In this document: positions 28,478 to 47,890 of the stretch, one piece after another
Layout of the letters: each line of letters begins with the position of its first letter
Position numbering within the stretch: position 1 is the stretch's first letter
Virus record (IMG/VR): IMGVR_UViG_3300036823_000156
Span: 19,960-83,959 of that record
Strand: one strand, 5' to 3'
Origin: a virus
DNA: 64,000 nucleotides
Made by a program: the position numbers and the translations under genes
Notes under the pieces: model-generated
What the model saw: the letters and a program-made list of their open reading frames with translations, nothing else
Told to the model about the DNA's origin: nothing
Databases searched by the model: none

Positions 28478-28490
28478 AATGTACACTATC
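28478..28490 (-). promoter_or_regulatory. Conserved GTTAGTGTACATT-type motif (variant)
   Basis: aatgtacactatc; includes the TAG stop of the upstream gene. Confidence 0.6.
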
Positions 28491-29094
28491 GTTGCCAGGC
28501 CTCCACGGCGATGACCGCGTCGTCGTTGTCACGCAGCTGCAGCGAGTAGGTGTCGTTGTCGACTCCCAGCACGGCGTGCACGATCAGGTTTTTGCGCACA
28601 ATGCCTTCGACCCAGTGACCGTCGACCGACGCCCAGACCTTCTCGAAGTACAAGCCCTGCGGGGCACGGTGTACGACCAGCCCGTTCGACACCGGCTTCG
28701 GCTTCGCCTCCAACTCGGACAGACGCTGGATCAATGGCTTGGCCCGCAGCCAGTACAGCGCGCTGGTGGCGAAGTGCTCCCGCAACATCTCGTCCGGGCT
28801 CCACGAGCGACCCCGACCGCCCAGTTCGGTGTCACGCGCGGCCACGCACAACATCGCCTCCTGCGTCTGCAGGTAGCCGGCCCGCCGCTCGAACCACGCG
28901 ATCAGGTTCGCCCGATGTCCCGGCGCCAGCTGCTTGACCTTCAGCTTGCGTCCGTCGGCCGGGTACCACCACTTCTTCTGCTCCAGCAACTCCAGTGTGC
29001 TGGGACGGCCGTCGGCGTTCCAGCCGGACGTCGCGTTCTTGTAGTCCTCATCCCGGTCGAACGTCACGTCCTCGTAGTCCGTGTCGTCACCCAC
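28486..29094 (-). CDS. Hypothetical protein
   Basis: GTG start abutting the helicase stop; AAGGAG RBS. Confidence 0.6.
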   Translation of the reverse strand: MGDDTDYEDVTFDRDEDYKNATSGWNADGRPSTLELLEQKKWWYPADGRKLKVKQLAPGHRANLIAWFERRAGYLQTQEAMLCVAARDTELGGRGRSWSPDEMLREHFATSALYWLRAKPLIQRLSELEAKPKPVSNGLVVHRAPQGLYFEKVWASVDGHWVEGIVRKNLIVHAVLGVDNDTYSLQLRDNDDAVIAVEAWQR

Positions 29095-30854
29095 TAGATC
29101 AACTCCTTCGCTCTGCGCCCGTCGAGGGCGAACTTCTGGACGGCATCCGCCGCGCGGTTGTCGTTGTGGATCTTGTGCTCGATCGTGCCGGTCGAGCCGA
29201 GGTACCAGATGGTGACCTGGTGCATGCGGGACACGCGGTGCGCGCGGTCCTCGACCTGCTCCTGGTCGTCGGGCACCCAGGTCTGGTCCAGGAAGATCAC
29301 GTCGTCGGCCGCGTCCAGGGTCAGCGAGACGCCACCGGCCGTGGTGGTCAGCAGCATGACCTGCGGGGCGCCGTCCTCCTGGAACGAGCGCTTCGCCGTG
29401 GCCCGGCGGGCCTTGGACACGTCGCCGGTGATCTTGGTGACCTGCACGCCCGCCTCGATCAGCGCGGTCTCGAACAGGTCGATGACCGAGCTGAACTGGC
29501 TGGCGACGATCACCTTCTGGTCGGCGTCGCGCTCGGAGAGCCAGTTGAGCAACCACTTCAGCTTGTTGGAGGGCGTTTCGGGAACGAAGTTGCCCTCGTC
29601 GTCCAGCCGACCGGCGGTGGTGGCGAACTGCTTGAGCCGGGTCAGCACGGCCAACACGCCGTCGGCCTGCAGCTCCCCGCCGTCCAGCTCGACCAGGGCG
29701 CGCTGGCGCATGTCCTTGTAGATGCGGGCCTGCTCGGGCTCCATGTCCAGCCAGATGGCGCCGTTGCCGGCGTAGAACTTCGGCGGCAGGTCGGGGGCCG
29801 CGTCCTTCTTCGTGCGGCGCAGCATCACCGAGTCCAGCTCGGCGTAGAACTCCGGCTTGCGGTGGATCTTCAGGCCGTCGATGATCCGGCCGCGGCCCGC
29901 CGCGTCGTCGTAGACCTCGAACCAGTGCTCGACCCACGTCCAGTACGAGCGGTATCGCTCGGGGTAGAGCCAGTTCAGCGTGCCCCACAGGTTCTCCAGC
30001 TTGCCGCGGAACGGCGTGCCCGACATCGCGATCCGCAGGCCACCCTCGGCCACCTTCAGTCGACCCAGGCCCTGCCGACGGGCGGCCTGCTTGTAGATGG
30101 CACCGGTGCGGGTGATCAACATCTGGTGCGACTCGTCAGCGATGATCGAGGCCCACTCGACGTCGTGCAGCTGGGTGTAGCCGTCCTTGAGACGGAACAT
30201 CTCCGGGTTGCACACCAGCCACTTGCGGCCGGGCGCGGCCAGGAACGCGGCGATCGTCTTCTCGCGCCTGACCCGGCCGCCGCAGCAGGCGAACACCGCG
30301 TCGCCGGGGACCCACCGGTGCAGCTCGGGCTCCCAGGTGAGGTCGACCGCGGTGGCCGGGGCGATGACCAGGTTCGGCCCGTCGATCCCGCTCTCCAGTA
30401 CGGCGCCGATCGACTGCAGCGTCTTGCCCAGGCCGGGCTGGTCGCCCAGCAGGCCGCAGCGCGAGGAGGCCAGCCAGGCCGCGCCGACCTGCTGGTAGGT
30501 GCGGGTGCTCATCGCCTCGGCGAGCACCGGGAAGAGGGTGCGCACGCGATCCACGTCGGCGCCCTCCTGCCCGGCGATCGCCGCGATCCGCTCGCGGCGC
30601 TGCTTCTCCTCGATCGCCCACGCGGTCAGCGCCGGGCCGATCGAGAGCTGCGTGCCCCACACCCGACGCAGGTCGGTGCAGCTGTACCACGCCAGTGGGT
30701 AGGTCCAGGCCTTGTGCGTCTTGTTCCAGGAGTGGCCTTGCACCGACTTGCACAGGCGCTTCATCTCCTCGAACGCCGCGTCGTCGCCGTAGGGGACGCG
30801 TGGCGTCCGGAGGTGGATCCGGCCGCTGACCAGTTCGATGGCGGGAAGCTGCAT
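29094..30854 (-). CDS. SNF2-family DNA helicase
   Basis: GDQPGLGKT, IADESH, SGTP, Q.EDRAHR. Confidence 0.92.
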   Translation of the reverse strand: MQLPAIELVSGRIHLRTPRVPYGDDAAFEEMKRLCKSVQGHSWNKTHKAWTYPLAWYSCTDLRRVWGTQLSIGPALTAWAIEEKQRRERIAAIAGQEGADVDRVRTLFPVLAEAMSTRTYQQVGAAWLASSRCGLLGDQPGLGKTLQSIGAVLESGIDGPNLVIAPATAVDLTWEPELHRWVPGDAVFACCGGRVRREKTIAAFLAAPGRKWLVCNPEMFRLKDGYTQLHDVEWASIIADESHQMLITRTGAIYKQAARRQGLGRLKVAEGGLRIAMSGTPFRGKLENLWGTLNWLYPERYRSYWTWVEHWFEVYDDAAGRGRIIDGLKIHRKPEFYAELDSVMLRRTKKDAAPDLPPKFYAGNGAIWLDMEPEQARIYKDMRQRALVELDGGELQADGVLAVLTRLKQFATTAGRLDDEGNFVPETPSNKLKWLLNWLSERDADQKVIVASQFSSVIDLFETALIEAGVQVTKITGDVSKARRATAKRSFQEDGAPQVMLLTTTAGGVSLTLDAADDVIFLDQTWVPDDQEQVEDRAHRVSRMHQVTIWYLGSTGTIEHKIHNDNRAADAVQKFALDGRRAKELI

Positions 30855-30861
30855 GCCGGCC

Positions 30862-30874
30862 AATGTACACTAAC
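30862..30874 (-). promoter_or_regulatory. Conserved GTTAGTGTACATT motif
   Basis: Exact aatgtacactaac on + strand. Confidence 0.7.
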
Positions 30875-31121
30875 CTTCCGCTACGGGTCCAGTCGGTTCC
30901 GGCCCGGCGTGCTCACCGAGGCTGAGATGGACGTGGGTGAGCAGCATCAGCTTCCGGGCGCCCTCCTGCACCTCCGCCAGCTCGTTGGCCGTGAGCTTCT
31001 TCAGCCCATGCGCCGCCATCGCGTTGCCCTCGGCGTTCTTGTCCATCAGACAAGTCAGGGCGGTCGCCGCCGACACCTGCGCGTCGGGCAGGGTCAGGAT
31101 CTTGTGGGCGTAGGCGTCCAT
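30870..31121 (-). CDS. Hypothetical protein
   Basis: GAGGAG RBS. Confidence 0.6.
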   Translation of the reverse strand: MDAYAHKILTLPDAQVSAATALTCLMDKNAEGNAMAAHGLKKLTANELAEVQEGARKLMLLTHVHLSLGEHAGPEPTGPVAEG

Positions 31122-31317
31122 TCCGCTCCTCTTCCAGTGAGACGATCAACTGCCGGAGGGATCCGGCAATCGCTTCGAAGTCCAGCACGTACTCCGCATG
31201 CACGCGCTGGTCGCGCTTGCGGGCGATCCGCAAGATGTTCTCGCAGGTGTCCAGCGCCCGCCGGGCGAGCGTCAGATGCAGTGGGTACAAAGGTGTCCTT
31301 TCCAGACGGTTCAGAAC

Positions 31318-31892
31318 CGCACGGGCATTACTAAATGGCGTGCGCCAGCATGGTTGGCTCGTGCGGAGCGAGGTCCGCCCGGCCGGCGGGTCTACTTGGC
31401 GCACAGGAGGTCATGGCCAACCGGGCGGAGCGAGTTCCCAGCCTGCGTCCCGCTATGGGTACACGATAATCACTGGCAGACCGGGAGGTGGAGCCGCCCG
31501 GCTGGCGACCGATTTCTGGAGCGCGCTCCGTACTGGCCAGCCGGGCGGAGTAGGTGATCGAGCGGTCAATTTTGGTGTGTCGCGAAGTAATGGCTCGATC
31601 GGAAGGGGACCGCCCGGCTGGCGGGGTCGGGGTGGAGTGCGATGTGAGCTGGCCAACCGGGCGGAGTGGTTCCGAGGCGGGACACATTTGGGGTGCGCCA
31701 CGAAATGGCCTCGGTGTGTTGGGCCGCCCGGCTGGTGGCATTAGTTGGAGTGCGACACTCTGATGACCAACCGGGCGGAGTAGATGACCGGGCATAACGA
31801 TATGGAATGCGAATCGCGTTGGCCCGATCAGAAGGGACCGCCCGGCTGGCGGTTCAAGATGGGTTGTGTCGGATTTCTGGCCAGCCGGGCGG
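31318..31892 (-). ncRNA. TIGR-like stem-loop guide array, about 10 units (downstream of Tas-like gene)
   Basis: About 58-nt periodic hairpin units: stem-CCA-N8/9-(CRCnnn)-CCA-N9-stem on the - strand; alternate units share the CCGCCCGGYTGG stem. Confidence 0.8.
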
Positions 31893-31896
31893 AGTC

Positions 31897-32823
31897 TCAG
31901 GCCGCGTCCTGCAGGTCGGGCGGTCCGAAGCCGTGGGCGACGTGGATGGCGCGGGACTGCCGCCACAGGTCGCGCAGGACCTCCTTGGACACGCACCGCA
32001 GGGCGCGAGCGTGGATGTGGTTCTTCGACAGCGGGGTGCCGGCGAGCGCGGGGCTGCCCGAGGGTCCGCATCGGACGCAGGCCAACTCGTGCACGGCGTC
32101 GGCGTAGAACTCCTTCTCCTGGTCGTAGACCTCGCGGTACGGGCCGCCGGACTTCATGCAGGACTCGGAAATCATCCGGCAGCGCATCCGCGCGGTGACC
32201 GACCAGTTGACCTTGGTGCCCTTGCGGCGGGCCGGAGCCAGACCGGCGATCACGCTGTAGCCGGAGTAGCTCCACAGCTCGGCGATCGTGCGGGGGCGGC
32301 CCATCTTGACGTTCCAGTACGGATCCCCGATCGCGGCCAGCAGTCGACCGACCTGCTTGGCGCCCAGGCCCTTCTGCGCCTCGATCCAGCCGTACAGCGG
32401 GTGGTCCTGAATGGTCTTCTGCAGGTTCTTCGTCGCGTTGACCTCGGCCCGCTGCATCGGCGGCACGATCAGGCCCATCTGCCACACCATCGGGTTCCAG
32501 CCCTTGGGCATGGTGAAGATCTTGCGGTTGGCCGCGGCCTGGATGGACAGGTGCGTCTCGACCTCGTCGAGCACGGCCTGCACGAGGTCGAAATCCTCCT
32601 CGTCCTCGGGCACGTGGATGTTCGGGGGCAGGAAGCCGAAGCCGACGTCCTTGCCGTCCTTGTTCATCCGGGGCAGCACGAGCTGGCGCAACCGGTTCTG
32701 GTTGGCGATGCGCACGCGCTCCATGTCGTCGAGCACGTCGGCGGCCATCGTCAACGTGGGCGGCGACATCAGTTCGGCGAGGGGATTCGGTACCGCTTCG
32801 ACCTCTTCGATCTCTTCTGTCAT
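31897..32823 (-). CDS. Nop/IS110-C-terminal-domain RNA-binding protein, nuclease-less (TasA-like)
   Basis: RIANQNRL coiled coil, HPLY.W....GLG.....LLA.IGD, LWSYSG, RRKG...NWS, YR..YD..K, H.HARALR...K..L.DLW; no DEDD RuvC or HNH seen. Confidence 0.75.
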   Translation of the reverse strand: MTEEIEEVEAVPNPLAELMSPPTLTMAADVLDDMERVRIANQNRLRQLVLPRMNKDGKDVGFGFLPPNIHVPEDEEDFDLVQAVLDEVETHLSIQAAANRKIFTMPKGWNPMVWQMGLIVPPMQRAEVNATKNLQKTIQDHPLYGWIEAQKGLGAKQVGRLLAAIGDPYWNVKMGRPRTIAELWSYSGYSVIAGLAPARRKGTKVNWSVTARMRCRMISESCMKSGGPYREVYDQEKEFYADAVHELACVRCGPSGSPALAGTPLSKNHIHARALRCVSKEVLRDLWRQSRAIHVAHGFGPPDLQDAA

Positions 32824-32850
32824 GCACTTTCTCCTTGGGTGGGTGGGGAT

Positions 32851-33216
32851 TCCGACTGACGGGGAGTGCTGGTCGCACGATCGCTGATGGTCAGTCGGAG
32901 CGGTGGTCCGCTCGGCCGGCGGGATGACTTGTGTCGTGCTTCCGTGTTGGCCGACCGAGCGGAACTCGGTCACCCGGCCGACGTCGTCAGCGTTGGTTCG
33001 CCGCGCGCTGTTGGTCGACCGGGCAAATCTCTTCGGGTGGAACCGCCCGACTGGCGAAAGGTGTTTGGGCAGCGATCGCTCCTGGCCAGCCGGGCGGAGT
33101 CGGGCCCGTTGCCGACACGACGATTGTGAGTCGAGTCGTGCGGTGGTCGGCAACGGGAGTGGGCGTCCGGCCAACGTTCACCCGTGGGGCGCATGGGTCG
33201 AGCTGGTCGGCCGGAC
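32851..33216 (-). ncRNA. TIGR-like stem-loop guide array, 6 units (upstream of Tas-like gene)
   Basis: Six hairpins with paired TGG (CCA on - strand) boxes about 18 nt apart; starts just after the conserved motif at 33220. Confidence 0.78.
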
Positions 33217-33219
33217 TGA

Positions 33220-33232
33220 AATGTACACTAAC
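33220..33232 (-). promoter_or_regulatory. Conserved GTTAGTGTACATT motif upstream of the TIGR-like array
   Basis: Exact aatgtacactaac. Confidence 0.7.
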
Positions 33233-33258
33233 ACAGGTCGGTGTAGCGGTAATGATCC

Positions 33259-33692
33259 AAGCCTCGCCTCGCCTGGCCGCGCCCTGCCCAGCCTCGCCCC
33301 GCCATGCACCGCCTTGCCTAGCACCGCATCGCCAAGCGCGTCCGGCAGCGGAGTCGAACCGCTGCTACGACCATCCGGACAACCATTCTCCCAGCCTTGC
33401 CATGCCGCGCCATGCCTCGCCGGGCACCGCCCAGCCTCGCCACGCCGAGCGTGCTGCCCCCGGGAGTCGAACCCGAGATGCGACCATCGCAGCTACCATT
33501 CTCCTAGCCACGCCGCGCACCGCCGCGCCCTGCCGCGCCGAGCCACGCCATGCCAAGCCACGCCCTGCCGAGCGTGCTGCCCCCGGGAGTCGAACCCGAG
33601 GTACGACCATCGCAGCCACCATTCTCCTAGCCTGGCCCAGCCGCGCCCTGCCCTGCCGAGCCACGCCCTGCCCTGCCGAGCCACGCCACGCC
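33259..33692 (-). ncRNA. Array of four (GGC-NN)11-15 pentamer tracts separated by mini tRNA-like elements (VIPR-like guide RNAs)
   Basis: Tracts 33259-33333, 33392-33446, 33505-33569, 33628-33692; separators carry GGTTCGACTCC T-arms. Confidence 0.8.
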
Positions 33693-33705
33693 CTGCATCT
33701 TCGCG

Positions 33706-34191
33706 CTAGGCGCGAAGTTTCTTGGGAGCGTTGCGCTCCAATTCTGCCACTCGCTCGGCGAGTGACCGAGTTTCGCGGCGGCGGCGGCCGTTGATCTCGG
33801 CCTTGCGAGCTGCTACGCGTTCCTCGAAGTCCACCTCGGCCCGCCGTTCGTGTACCAGTTCGGCACGACGGCGTTGTGAGGCATTGATCTTGGCGGCGTG
33901 ACGGTCGTCAGCGCGTGCAGCTTTCTTGCGTTGCCTGCCGATCAGCGGCACGGCGGCGTTCGGCTCCAACACCAGCCACCCGATGTTCTCCTTGGTTTCG
34001 ACCGTGTTCTTGCCGGCACGACCGAGTTCCAGATTGGCCTTGATCATCGCGCCTTGGACCGAGTTCCGGCTGGGCGCCTTGCAGTCCTCGATAGCCTGGG
34101 CATAGGTGATGACGCCACCCACCTCGGTCTCGCACACGATGTCGTACAGGATCCGCCAACGTGCCTTGCCGTTCGCAGGTTCGATGTTCAT
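33706..34191 (-). CDS. Accessory protein, putative winged-HTH plus basic coiled coil
   Basis: ATGA overlap with the RAMP-like gene; GGVITY...V....NIGW wing-like pattern. Confidence 0.6.
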   Translation of the reverse strand: MNIEPANGKARWRILYDIVCETEVGGVITYAQAIEDCKAPSRNSVQGAMIKANLELGRAGKNTVETKENIGWLVLEPNAAVPLIGRQRKKAARADDRHAAKINASQRRRAELVHERRAEVDFEERVAARKAEINGRRRRETRSLAERVAELERNAPKKLRA

Positions 34192-34763
34192 TGAGTCACC
34201 TCGACCGTGAACCTCCCGTAGAACCGGCGGAACGTGCCGACACCGATCATCTTGCCCGCCTTGGTCGCGATATCTTGGAAGTCCTCGGTCGACAGCACGC
34301 GGTCGTCGACGTCGATCTCGAACGCGCAGGACCACTGCGGGAAGATCGGCCGGACGCGCGGGATGCGCTTGCCCTCCACATTCACCATCAGGCGGCTGAC
34401 GTACGGACTGGTCGGCCCGTCGCCCCAGAGACCGTCGACATCGCGCGGCCCGTCATAGGACAGTGGCGCCTTCAGATCAAAAACCTGAAGAGCTTGAGCG
34501 ACTTTCTTGCCCGACCGGGTGATGGACCCCGCCTCCATCAGCGCCCGGAAGATGTTGTCACCCGGCAGGTACGGACCGAGCTCGGCGTTGTGGTACAGCG
34601 CCCCGACCCAGGACAACCGGTCGATCTCGGCCCTGTCCTCGTCGGTCTTGTTGGTTCGTTTGGACGTCAGTTTCTTTACGGCCCTGGTGATCGGCTCATC
34701 GGGGTCGGCAAGTCTGATGTTGTGCATGATGAGCGGCGCGATGCCGGTCAGCTCGATTCGCAT
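34188..34763 (-). CDS. Stand-alone RAMP/Cas7-like protein (Vipr-like)
   Basis: N-terminal IELTGIAPLIMH strand, PYLPG, RVRPIFPQW and C-terminal G-rich loop GVGTFRRFYGRFTV. Confidence 0.72.
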   Translation of the reverse strand: MRIELTGIAPLIMHNIRLADPDEPITRAVKKLTSKRTNKTDEDRAEIDRLSWVGALYHNAELGPYLPGDNIFRALMEAGSITRSGKKVAQALQVFDLKAPLSYDGPRDVDGLWGDGPTSPYVSRLMVNVEGKRIPRVRPIFPQWSCAFEIDVDDRVLSTEDFQDIATKAGKMIGVGTFRRFYGRFTVEVTQ

Positions 34764-34830
34764 GACTTTCCGTTCTGTGGTCAGTGTTTGACGGCAGTTC
34801 CGTCTCACTTCACATCGGACATTGTCCGAT

Positions 34831-34937
34831 CGTGCGGGCCGAGGACTCGAACCTCGGTGTGTGCCGCTCCCGCTTCCTAGCCTGGCCCCGCCAAGCCCTG
34901 CCCTGCCGAGCCACGCCCTGCCATGCCGAGCCCTGCC
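34831..34937 (-). ncRNA. (GGC-NN)12 tract plus mini tRNA-like element upstream of the RAMP-like gene
   Basis: 12 perfect pentamers at 34878-34937 followed by GCGGG...CCGAGG-TTCGAGT-CCTCGG-CCCGC-ACG. Confidence 0.8.
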
Positions 34938-34944
34938 TTGCAAG

Positions 34945-34978
34945 AATGTACACTAACGTAGGTCGGTGATCGCGTCAA
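34945..34978 (-). promoter_or_regulatory. SigA-like promoter containing the conserved motif
   Basis: TTGACG-17 bp-TAGTGT(ACATT) immediately before the first GGC-NN tract. Confidence 0.7.
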
Positions 34979-35420
34979 GTCCGACGGAGCGGAAAGCACT
35001 GTCCGCAAAGGTCAGAACGCGGCGGCCCATGCGAGTGCTGTAGACGTGGGTGGAGCGGGCATCCTTGGGCACGGTGGCCTTCTCGCGCAGACCGGTGAAC
35101 GTGTTGATCCACTCGATCTGCTTGCCGGCCAGGCATTCCGCTGCCGTGTTGTCGTCCATGGCCGCGAAGTCGTAGGTCGGCTCGCTGGTGCGCAGTGCGG
35201 TGGCCGCCGCGGCCGGGTCCAGGATCTGCTGGCGCCCCCGCACTTCGGGCGACTCGAACCAGGACTCCGAACTGGCGAAGCGCTCGCCGCGCCAGATCAG
35301 CTCCATCCGCTCACCCTCGCCGCGCCAGAACCGCATCCGGTAGTCGCTCTCGTAGCCCAGCTCGTCGTGCTCCCAGCCCATCTTGGTGGCCCAGTGCGCC
35401 AACTCCTCGGTGCCTTTCAC
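34953..35420 (-). CDS. Hypothetical protein
   Basis: Coupled ORF. Confidence 0.6.
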   Translation of the reverse strand: MKGTEELAHWATKMGWEHDELGYESDYRMRFWRGEGERMELIWRGERFASSESWFESPEVRGRQQILDPAAAATALRTSEPTYDFAAMDDNTAAECLAGKQIEWINTFTGLREKATVPKDARSTHVYSTRMGRRVLTFADSAFRSVGLDAITDLR

Positions 35421-45364: not shown

Positions 45365-46259
45365 ACCCGCTCGATCGACGAGGCAACATGGGGACACACA
45401 GTCCACTGGCCGGTCGACGGGAAGTTGTCGCGAGTTTAGCAGTGCCGCGGCCGGTCCGGCATAAGGTCGTGGGTGCCACTGGGCCCCTGACCGGACCGGC
45501 CTCGGCACGTCAGGCGTGCAGAGCGGCCACGTGGTCGATCGCGGCGTGCGCGGCGGTGATGTACTCCAGGGTCGGATCCTTGCGGATCTCCTGACCCGGC
45601 ACGTACTCGTCCCACACCGCCTTCTGCAGAGCGTAGGGCACGAGCTTCCAGTGCCGGAAGCACATCAGCAGTCGAGGTGCCACTTCTTTGGCGCACCCTC
45701 GGGCGTGGCACTTGTGCCCCATGCGCTCTCCTGTTCTTGTCGCCAACCGGGCGACCGAATGTGGGTCGCGTGAACTTATGGCCCGGCTGGCCGCCATGGG
45801 ATGAGTGTCGCGTGCGAATGAGCCAGCCGGGGGTCGTTAGCCATTGGGATTCGGGACACAGTGGGCCGCCCGGCTGGCGCCATCCGTTGAGGTGGGGTGC
45901 CTTTTTGGCCAAACGGGCGGACGTTAGACGGGCAGCTCCCTAATCCAGACTACTCAGGTCCGGCCAATCGGGACTTCGCACGAGTGACTAGCTCGCACTC
46001 GGTGTTAGTCAGACACACTGCCCTGCTTGGGATCCGACCGCTCGGCTGGCGACTCAAGATGGAGCCCGGAACGTGATGGCCAGTCGAGAGGTCGGATGGC
46101 CAGCCGGGCGGTCGGGGAGTGTTGGGGCCCGCGGAGAAGTGGACCGCCCGGCTGGCGCGAGTCAATGGTGTCGCGTGTCAGCGTTGGCCAACCGGGCGGG
46201 GCCTCCGCCCGGCTGGTACGTCCCTGCTTGGAGAACGCGATCAAGTGACCAGCCGGGCG
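45365..46259 (-). ncRNA. Orphan TIGR-like stem-loop array (about 7 units, interrupted by a small ORF)
   Basis: Same CCGCCCGGCTGG/CCAGCCGGGCGG stems and paired TGG boxes as the 31.3-33.2 kb arrays. Confidence 0.7.
45510..45722 (-). CDS. Small Zn-binding hypothetical protein
   Basis: H.C.A.GC...LMC..HW motif; AGGAG RBS. Confidence 0.6.
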   Translation of the reverse strand: MGHKCHARGCAKEVAPRLLMCFRHWKLVPYALQKAVWDEYVPGQEIRKDPTLEYITAAHAAIDHVAALHA

Positions 46260-46263
46260 AATG

Positions 46264-47723: not shown

Positions 47724-47890
47724 TCTCTAGCGGGGCGATGACGGGAACGTTAGTGCACGGTGCCGGGTCGCGCAACCCTCCAGCAGGATCAGAGAGGTCG
47801 ACGGTCTTGTTTTGGCTGGTCAGACGGCCCAAAAAATTTCTGGCCCATTTTTCTTGATCAAACCCGTTATTGTACATTTCGGACATCGGA

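Follow-up and report, generated by a model that had tools for sequence, protein, structure and literature searches.

The question raised by this locus is what is encoded by an open reading frame (ORF) that is flanked on both sides by tandem hairpins in an actinophage genome, and whether the hairpins and the protein belong to one system. The locus lies in a 64,000-nucleotide (nt) stretch of the IMG/VR record IMGVR_UViG_3300036823_000156, referred to here as the window, which covers positions 19960-83959 of one contig of 83,959 bp and has a G+C content of 63-71% and the gene content of a tailed actinophage. Our analysis indicates that the locus is very probably a stem-loop TIGR-TasA system of this phage. 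The class is already published (Faure 2025; Xu 2026), and every structural feature of the locus fits the published description. TIGR arrays carry a box C (CCA), a box D (UG) and two spacers, which pair with one strand of the DNA and with the other; TasA, TasR and TasH subtypes are distinguished, and one array type consists of stem-loops, whose units are processed and bound by a TasA as unit-length RNAs (Faure 2025, PMC12045711). A catalogue of 2,559 stem-loop arrays, located upstream of, downstream of, flanking or inside tas, gave spacer lengths of 8-10 nt, 9 nt for the element between the spacers and CUU as the processing motif, and one TasA was shown to repress transcription under RNA guidance without cutting DNA (Xu 2026, 10.64898/2026.09.09.750476). 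The gene and its flanking arrays are arranged as follows (window coordinates).

31897..32823, minus strand: tasA, stop codon included, encoding a 308-amino-acid, predicted nuclease-less Nop-domain protein (P0001; translation, sequence and fold matches)
32831..32836, minus strand: ribosome-binding site AAGGAG, 7 nt ahead of the ATG (read from the sequence)
32851..33216, minus strand: upstream stem-loop TIGR array of 6 units, each with its own stem sequence (six separate hairpins in the fold, fold energy z -5.4)
33216-33165 (U1), 33157-33105 (U2), 33097-33043 (U3), 33026-32970 (U4), 32963-32907 (U5), 32899-32851 (U6), minus strand: units of the upstream array
31317..31892, minus strand: downstream stem-loop TIGR array of 10 units, D1-D10 (fold energy z -8.9)
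31892-31838 (D1), 31830-31785 (D2), 31778-31724 (D3), 31714-31672 (D4), 31664-31610 (D5), 31600-31556 (D6), 31548-31494 (D7), 31486-31436 (D8), 31429-31374 (D9), 31366-31317 (D10), minus strand: units of the downstream array

The first-pass annotation of this DNA had noticed about 10 hairpins downstream and 6 upstream of the ORF, and all 16 are present on the minus strand. Each unit follows the same grammar, namely a stem running into CCA (split as C/CA), spacer A, YG, N4-5, CCA, spacer B, YG (split as Y/G) and the closing stem arm. The C-A after the stem is invariant in 24/24 aligned units (16 flanking tasA and 8 from distal arrays described below), and the placement of CCA before each of two spacers, as first read, agrees with the published box C/box D stem-loop arrays. 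Position 9 past each CCA is C in 18/25 units of the genome, for each spacer, and was therefore assigned to box D, so that the free spacers measure mostly 8-9 nt instead of the 8-10 nt originally proposed. Among the 16 flanking units, stems span 7-14 bp and loops 28-31 nt (29 nt in 11/16), and a 29-nt loop implies that at least one spacer per unit is 8 nt long. The linkers are pyrimidine-rich and 6-9 nt long, with the exception of the 16-nt linker between U3 and U4. In the downstream array, the odd units (D1, D3, D5, D7, D9) carry the conserved stem CCGCCCGG(C/T)TGG and alternate with even units that have unique stems. A strict grammar scan recovered 6 upstream and 8 downstream units against shuffle means of 0.035 and 0.025, respectively (200 shuffles per segment), and 20 of its 22 minus-strand matches over the window fell inside the arrays. 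Additionally, 9/9 inner stem pairs had changed on both sides, 96% of the cells pair, and the covariation score was reached by 0/500 shuffles, in a test that is partly circular because the units had been picked as hairpins. A covariance model (R1), built from the 24 aligned units of this window only, scored the upstream units at 28.6-38.2 bits, these units being part of its training set. No repeat pair bracketing the whole locus was found by a repeat search.

The protein encoded between the arrays is closest to Tas proteins in both sequence and predicted fold. A phmmer search of P0001 against PDB sequences matched TasR (9mty_A) at E 9e-16 and TasH at E 4e-4, and the protein belongs with PHROG 4285, labelled 'transposase', at E 4e-78. 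An AlphaFold2 model obtained from 44 homologues reached a pLDDT of 91.7, and Foldseek placed TasR/TasH chains at ranks 1-10 (E 2e-7), followed by IS110-type recombinases and then by Nop5 and Prp31. The comparison with Tas, Nop5 and IS110 structures proposed at first reading gave the same order with VIA-align and bears out the Nop/Tas-like character suggested there. Specifically, the model aligned to TasR with Z 17.5 (rmsd 2.7, 191 residues aligned, TasR residues 111-322) and to TasH with Z 17.1, followed by IS621 and ISCro4 with Z ~12 (IS621 aligned over residues 124-314 only) and by Nop5, Nop56/58 and Prp31 with Z ~7. TasR residues 111-322 correspond to the Nop part only, and the alignment to P0001 begins past the TasR RuvC domain. 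The coiled coil of the model begins at residue 22, and because only ~20 residues precede it, P0001 is predicted to be without a RuvC or HNH nuclease domain and therefore to be of the TasA subtype, in line with the nuclease-free protein envisaged at first. Pfam returned no domain for P0001, and PF01548 and PF02371 were not matched. A second tas gene was not found in the 84-kb genome. Across the 44 homologues, 40 positions of the P0001 alignment are invariant, including C249, C252, H269 and H271 (CxxC...HxH). Residues 249-271 (window about 32079-32011) form a small beta-hairpin insertion in the model, and these four residues may constitute a putative zinc site; a zinc site of TasA is not mentioned in Xu 2026.

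The association between the hairpins and the gene was examined in relatives by searching R1 in 83 loci from IMG/VR and from GenBank phages, whose homologues have identities of 29-45%. A total of 262 matches at E below 1 was obtained, 260 of them on the tas strand, clustered just upstream of, inside and just downstream of tas. Likewise, a motif scan of the relatives found 482 units on the tas strand vs 52 on the opposite strand. The consensus of 150 relatives' units reads C93%-C99%-A100%, N9, C83%-G, N4, C94%-C97%-A, N9, C94%-G95%; in these units 99.3% of the stem cells pair and 391 cells changed on both sides, a pairing figure that leans towards the fitted structure of R1, while the strand asymmetry is independent of the fit. 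Directly supported parts of the assignment are thus the unit grammar, the protein fold, the missing nuclease domain and the strand-specific co-occurrence with tas. Prophage relatives of P0001 occur across Actinomycetota, including Streptomyces, Kitasatospora, Mycolicibacterium, Nocardioides and Micropruina, with identities of at most 42%; a close-relative protein search found no relative in viral or metagenome contigs. Of the more similar relatives (P0002-P0008, 58-80% identity), the analysis covered one locus, L084. A tasA-type gene is present in 83 mycobacteriophage records. Among the mycobacteriophages, Omega gp21 and BPBiebs31 gp74 are TasA homologues with 41% identity that carry the RefSeq annotation 'transposase', which looks wrong, and canonical stem-loop units lie on the same strand in both phages (8 in Omega, 2 or more in BPBiebs31). 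Both loci, which belong to the homologous loci searched with R1, are the following.

NC_004688.1 14216-16568: locus of mycobacteriophage Omega (L081)
NC_042327.1 45866-46115: locus of mycobacteriophage BPBiebs31 (L082)

No neighbour of the tasA studied here recurs near tas in the other fetched loci, so that no partner gene was identified by this comparison. In a Streptomyces prophage (L110, 3504-3559) and a Kitasatospora prophage (L112, 3480-3535), an intragenic tas unit has the same stem, GGGCGACCCCGGC, and different spacers; the spacers of these units have changed within coding sequence.

When compared to described stem-loop systems, the locus most resembles those of PlTasA, from a Peromyscus leucopus gut contig (Faure 2025), and of BlTasA and MbTasA (Xu 2026), a likeness drawn from their published descriptions. 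They have in common a Nop-domain protein without a nuclease, stems that vary and covary, sub-arrays to either side of tas, 9 nt separating the two spacers (YG, N4-5, CCA) and a short C-terminal tail without the Y/H processing loop region; TasH processes its own guides by the Y/H loop, which is missing from the stem-loop clades (Xu 2026, 10.64898/2026.09.09.750476). In contrast to the published stem-loop systems, box D is CG and not UG in most units of our phage, one spacer is 8 nt long because the loops mostly measure 29 nt, CUC is commoner at the stem base than the CUU described before, additional arrays are located 12.5 kb from tas, and conserved and unique stems alternate, with some arms common to neighbouring units. 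More distant counterparts are TaTasR (PDB 9mty) and SpTasH (PDB 9vzx, 9w02-04, 21kl), which have the Nop fold, a CCA box C before each spacer and two spacers per guide in common with this system; unlike this TasA they possess RuvC or HNH domains and cut DNA, and their guides are 36-nt units from dual-repeat arrays instead of hairpins. Box C/D snoRNPs (Nop5/Nop56/58 with fibrillarin and L7Ae) also combine a Nop fold with a two-spacer guide beside box motifs, and differ in their RNA targets, in their K-turns bound with L7Ae and in their methyltransferase. The K-turn motif (RUGAUGA/CUGA) is absent from the units, which carry CCA and YG only, and Rfam returned no snoRNA family at the locus; as regards fibrillarin and L7Ae genes, no search of the genome was made.

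Some observations weigh against the assignment to stem-loop TIGR-TasA. The published CUU processing motif occurs in only 2 linkers (D1-D2 and D5-D6), CUC lies across the linker-stem junction at the stem base of 7 units, and neither is present in the rest. The loops are mostly 29 nt long, compared with 30 nt in 411/482 of the relatives' units. A generic sigma-70 scan finds no promoter. Finally, no target was found, and the function is presumed from relatives whose identity in solved structures is at most 26-33%.

Beyond the flanks of tasA, further units of the same grammar are situated 12.5 kb away among unrelated small genes.

46042..46261, minus strand: distal array 1, units S1-S4, with the same conserved stems (grammar and covariance model)
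45742..45921, minus strand: distal array 2, units S5-S8, with arms common to adjacent units (grammar and covariance model)
45449..45501, minus strand: isolated unit S9, after a 70-amino-acid ORF at 45722..45510 (grammar followed, 27.8 bits)
45371..45417, minus strand: weak degenerate unit S10 with a bulged stem (covariance model 19.9 bits, E 0.12)

The distal units carry the conserved stem CCGCCCGGCTGGC, and S4 (46087-46042), which lay outside the training set, scored 29.1 bits (E 0.002). The genome thus holds ~25 units, 16 flanking tasA and ~9 distal, so that the first count of about 16 guides is right for the surroundings of the gene and too low for the genome, the distal arrays having been missed. 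S9 could act as a terminator hairpin too. The loop of the S4 region (46112-46042, minus strand) is 48 nt long and contains three CCA boxes along with three segments that look like spacers; S4 may be a unit with three spacers, or an inner hairpin whose 5' arm is duplicated. The last of its spacers, TCTTGAGTC, is similar to TCTTGAACC, which is spacer B of D1.

A candidate start for the transcript lies next to the first upstream unit.

33220..33233, minus strand: promoter-like motif TGTTAGTGTACATT, with TAGTGT as the -10 element, ending ~4 nt before U1 (motif recurrence)

The sequence (G/C)GTTAGTGTACATT occurs on the minus strand at five sites (28491, 30875, 33233, 34958 and 40244), and a search for GTTAGTGTACATT-type motifs allowing 2 mismatches gave 16 matches vs 3.3 expected. 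Four of the five copies are intergenic, and those at 30875, 34958 and 40244 precede genes or non-coding modules; the copy at 28491 is just upstream of or at the 5' end of ORF 28486-29988 and inside ORF 29094-30863. On the basis of this recurrence, the motif probably represents the -10 region of a phage promoter class heading several early modules, the TIGR array among them. Transcription from 33220, as the first-pass annotation proposed, is therefore plausible, subject to the sigma-70 result given above. Weaker plus-strand copies of (G/C)GTTAGTGTACATT are located at 47748, 47865 and 63297.

If the locus works like its published relatives, from which the steps of processing, dual-strand pairing and repression are taken, a leftward transcript would start at the promoter-like element (33233-33220) and run through six units, tasA and ten units. 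Host RNases would cut the pyrimidine-rich 6-9 nt linkers and free single hairpins (tigRNAs), each of which a putative TasA dimer would bind via two CCA/YG box pairs, one closing the stem and the other the central 4-5 nt loop. The spacers of each hairpin, two in number and 8-9 nt long, would pair with opposite strands of adjacent DNA, ~16-18 bp being read in all, and the complex, because its TasA lacks a predicted nuclease domain, would bind without cutting and block transcription or replication at the target. The ~9 further guides from the distal arrays (46261-45449) would load the same single TasA.

TIGR-Tas systems have been described only recently, and what they target in nature and where their spacers come from are open questions (Xu 2026, 10.64898/2026.09.09.750476). 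The likely form of a target, derived from 8-nt 3' overhangs and the 'C-5 rule' in the literature, is 5'-spacer B followed by the reverse complement of spacer A. The search for spacers A and B as adjacent targets, suggested at first reading, was run on the phage's own genome: the 25 guides were compared with the 84 kb in both geometries (rcA-B and B-rcA), as 9+9 nt with gaps of 0-3 and as 8+8 nt with gaps of 0-5. No guide rose above the control of mismatched A/B pairs, and matches of 16-17/18 were found only within the units themselves. A weak own-genome candidate is S9, which matches 15/16 at window 497-479 (0.12 expected). The 8-bp spacer words are not depleted in the phage genome (observed/expected 1.0), and spacer A shows no relation to spacer B or to the complement of spacer B. 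Within the phage, six spacer pairs are similar at 7/9 vs 2.0 expected, a mild excess (P about 0.01). The guides of Omega and BPBiebs31 likewise gave no match reaching 16/18 in their own genomes; as a cross match, Omega o2 matches BPBiebs31 gp65 at 16/18 (0.14 expected). Four guides of the Streptomyces prophage (L110) had no exact match in the 10.1-Mb host genome, a weak test limited to one geometry and exact matches. Across the loci, 578 guides are distinct among 655 units and guides are common only to close kin, and the best unit-level similarity of relatives' guides to those of our phage is 14/18, which fits chance.

These results bear on the best surviving alternative, in which the locus is a genuine TIGR-TasA system with an internal role, regulating the phage's own genes or replication or aiding recombination, and not directed at foreign DNA. 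Regulation and help to integrases are among the options raised for TasA (Faure 2025, PMC12045711), the locus is located within the early and replication gene block with a helicase gene just downstream, and S9 offers an own-genome candidate. Nevertheless, an internal role appears improbable to us, given the 25 guides without an own-genome match above the control, the equally unmatched guides of the two mycobacteriophages, and a diversity of guides that is not expected of conserved regulatory sites. Because no guide matches the phage's own genome, the targets of this TasA would most likely be competing phages, other mobile elements or the host. Foreign, changing targets fit better than fixed regulatory sites, since own-genome matches are missing and guides differ between loci, and we moderately favour foreign DNA as the target.

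A second alternative is that the locus is a decayed IS110-family insertion sequence, with the ORF as a transposase remnant and the hairpins as remains of a bridge RNA or of the element's ends. The 'transposase' labels of PHROG 4285, Omega gp21 and BPBiebs31 gp74 point this way, and the recombinases IS621 (PDB 8wt6/8wt9) and ISCro4 (PDB 9t56) have in common with this locus the fold of the RNA-binding domain, with Z ~12, as well as a guide RNA that reads DNA through paired loops. However, these enzymes possess RuvC-like DEDD and catalytic serine domains and use one bridge RNA per element, and the element moves, whereas this locus has 25 tandem dual-spacer guides and no such catalytic domains; the match to TasR begins past its RuvC domain, and Tas structures score far above IS110 enzymes (17.5 vs 12). 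Moreover, the nuclease-less architecture and the same-strand units have been kept in 83 loci, and the 40 invariant positions across 44 homologues point to selection and not decay. The IS110 explanation is therefore already largely refuted, and we give it very little credence. A third alternative, in which the hairpins have nothing to do with the protein and belong to common types of palindromic repeat (terminators, attenuators or REP-like elements), is hardly tenable either: the stems are GC-rich and S9 is placed after an ORF like a terminator, but the hairpin loops are long and uniform in length (28-31 nt) with CCA and YG at fixed positions, no T tracts follow the stems and a terminator scan found none on the minus strand, the units of relatives are strand-specific relative to tas (260 to 2), and some of these lie inside tas coding sequences, as in Xu 2026.

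Within the TIGR-TasA reading, the arrangement of the conserved arms suggests an additional layer of organization. In the distal arrays, the two arms that close S3 are the 3' arm of S2 and the 5' arm of S4, and one arm is common to S7 and S8; neighbours with a common arm therefore cannot fold simultaneously on one RNA. In the downstream array, the minimum-energy fold of the 591-nt RNA is an alternative register in which D2, D4, D6 and D8 are enclosed by their neighbours' conserved arms, and cotranscriptional folding would favour the simple hairpins. We tentatively raise the possibility, which we consider unlikely, that the conserved 13-nt arm (CCGCCCGGCTGGC and its complement) does more than close hairpins and serves alternative registers, recombination or both. 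As the arm recurs in every second unit and is common to distal neighbours, two mutually exclusive folding registers follow: judging from the sequence, one can form the odd units, and the other the even units with long distal stems made of their neighbours' arms. If this were true, one DNA stretch would encode alternative guide sets, selected by RNA folding during synthesis. As recombination sites, the repeated arms would allow units to be added, dropped or moved, which would explain why orphan arrays lie 12.5 kb away and why a near-identical soil phage has extra sequence in its upstream array, and would provide a spacer-turnover route for TIGR arrays. To our knowledge, no adaptation machinery is known for TIGR arrays.

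The near-identical phage comes from the second of the two soil DNA metagenome runs in which the stretch is present, these being the only such runs; one of the two may be the source of the window. A 36.9-kb contig of the second run (X2) agrees with 31200-33097 except for four differences, and tasA and the downstream array are almost unchanged. Compared over 33026-33163, the contig appears to contain ~265 extra bases between U2 and U3, including a diverged D7-like unit, and ~727 extra bases between U1 and U2. Three point differences, mapped by hand, change a G-U pair of the U3 stem to G-C, alter spacer B of U3 and convert the TCA box of U2 to CCA. These differences hint that near-identical phages come to differ by gaining or losing units, at the level of contigs in a repeated region where misassembly is possible.

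Regarding the remaining genome, the DnaE-like polymerase of the phage has 48% identity to its counterparts in mycobacteriophages PLot and PBI1, and Megablast against the phage collection gave no nucleotide match. Directly upstream of the promoter-like motif, the minus strand of 33257-33700 contains tracts of GGC-NN pentamer repeats, split by 3 copies of a ~65-nt element (GGTTCGACTCCC...GCAGCA) that resembles a tRNA acceptor stem and T-arm. ARAGORN found no tRNA and Rfam no family in these elements, and Rfam matches on 30500-35000 were at chance level only (RT-13, E 0.21; IRES_Bip, E 0.87).

The locus adds little to the definition of its class. Its added value is modest and lies in the distal arrays, the architecture of common arms, the negative outcome of the own-genome search and the connection to mycobacteriophages in culture. 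The phage provides a complete 84-kb genome with ~25 guides, and at the level of the searches made here, targeting of that genome by its own guides can be excluded. The distal arrays indicate that array finders searching only around tas could miss arrays of this kind. Finally, Omega gp21 and the members of the BPBiebs31 gp74 cluster are annotated as transposase or hypothetical protein, although these phages carry the same system. Their host in culture is Mycobacterium smegmatis mc2 155, in which the role that TasA plays natively is open to genetic tests.

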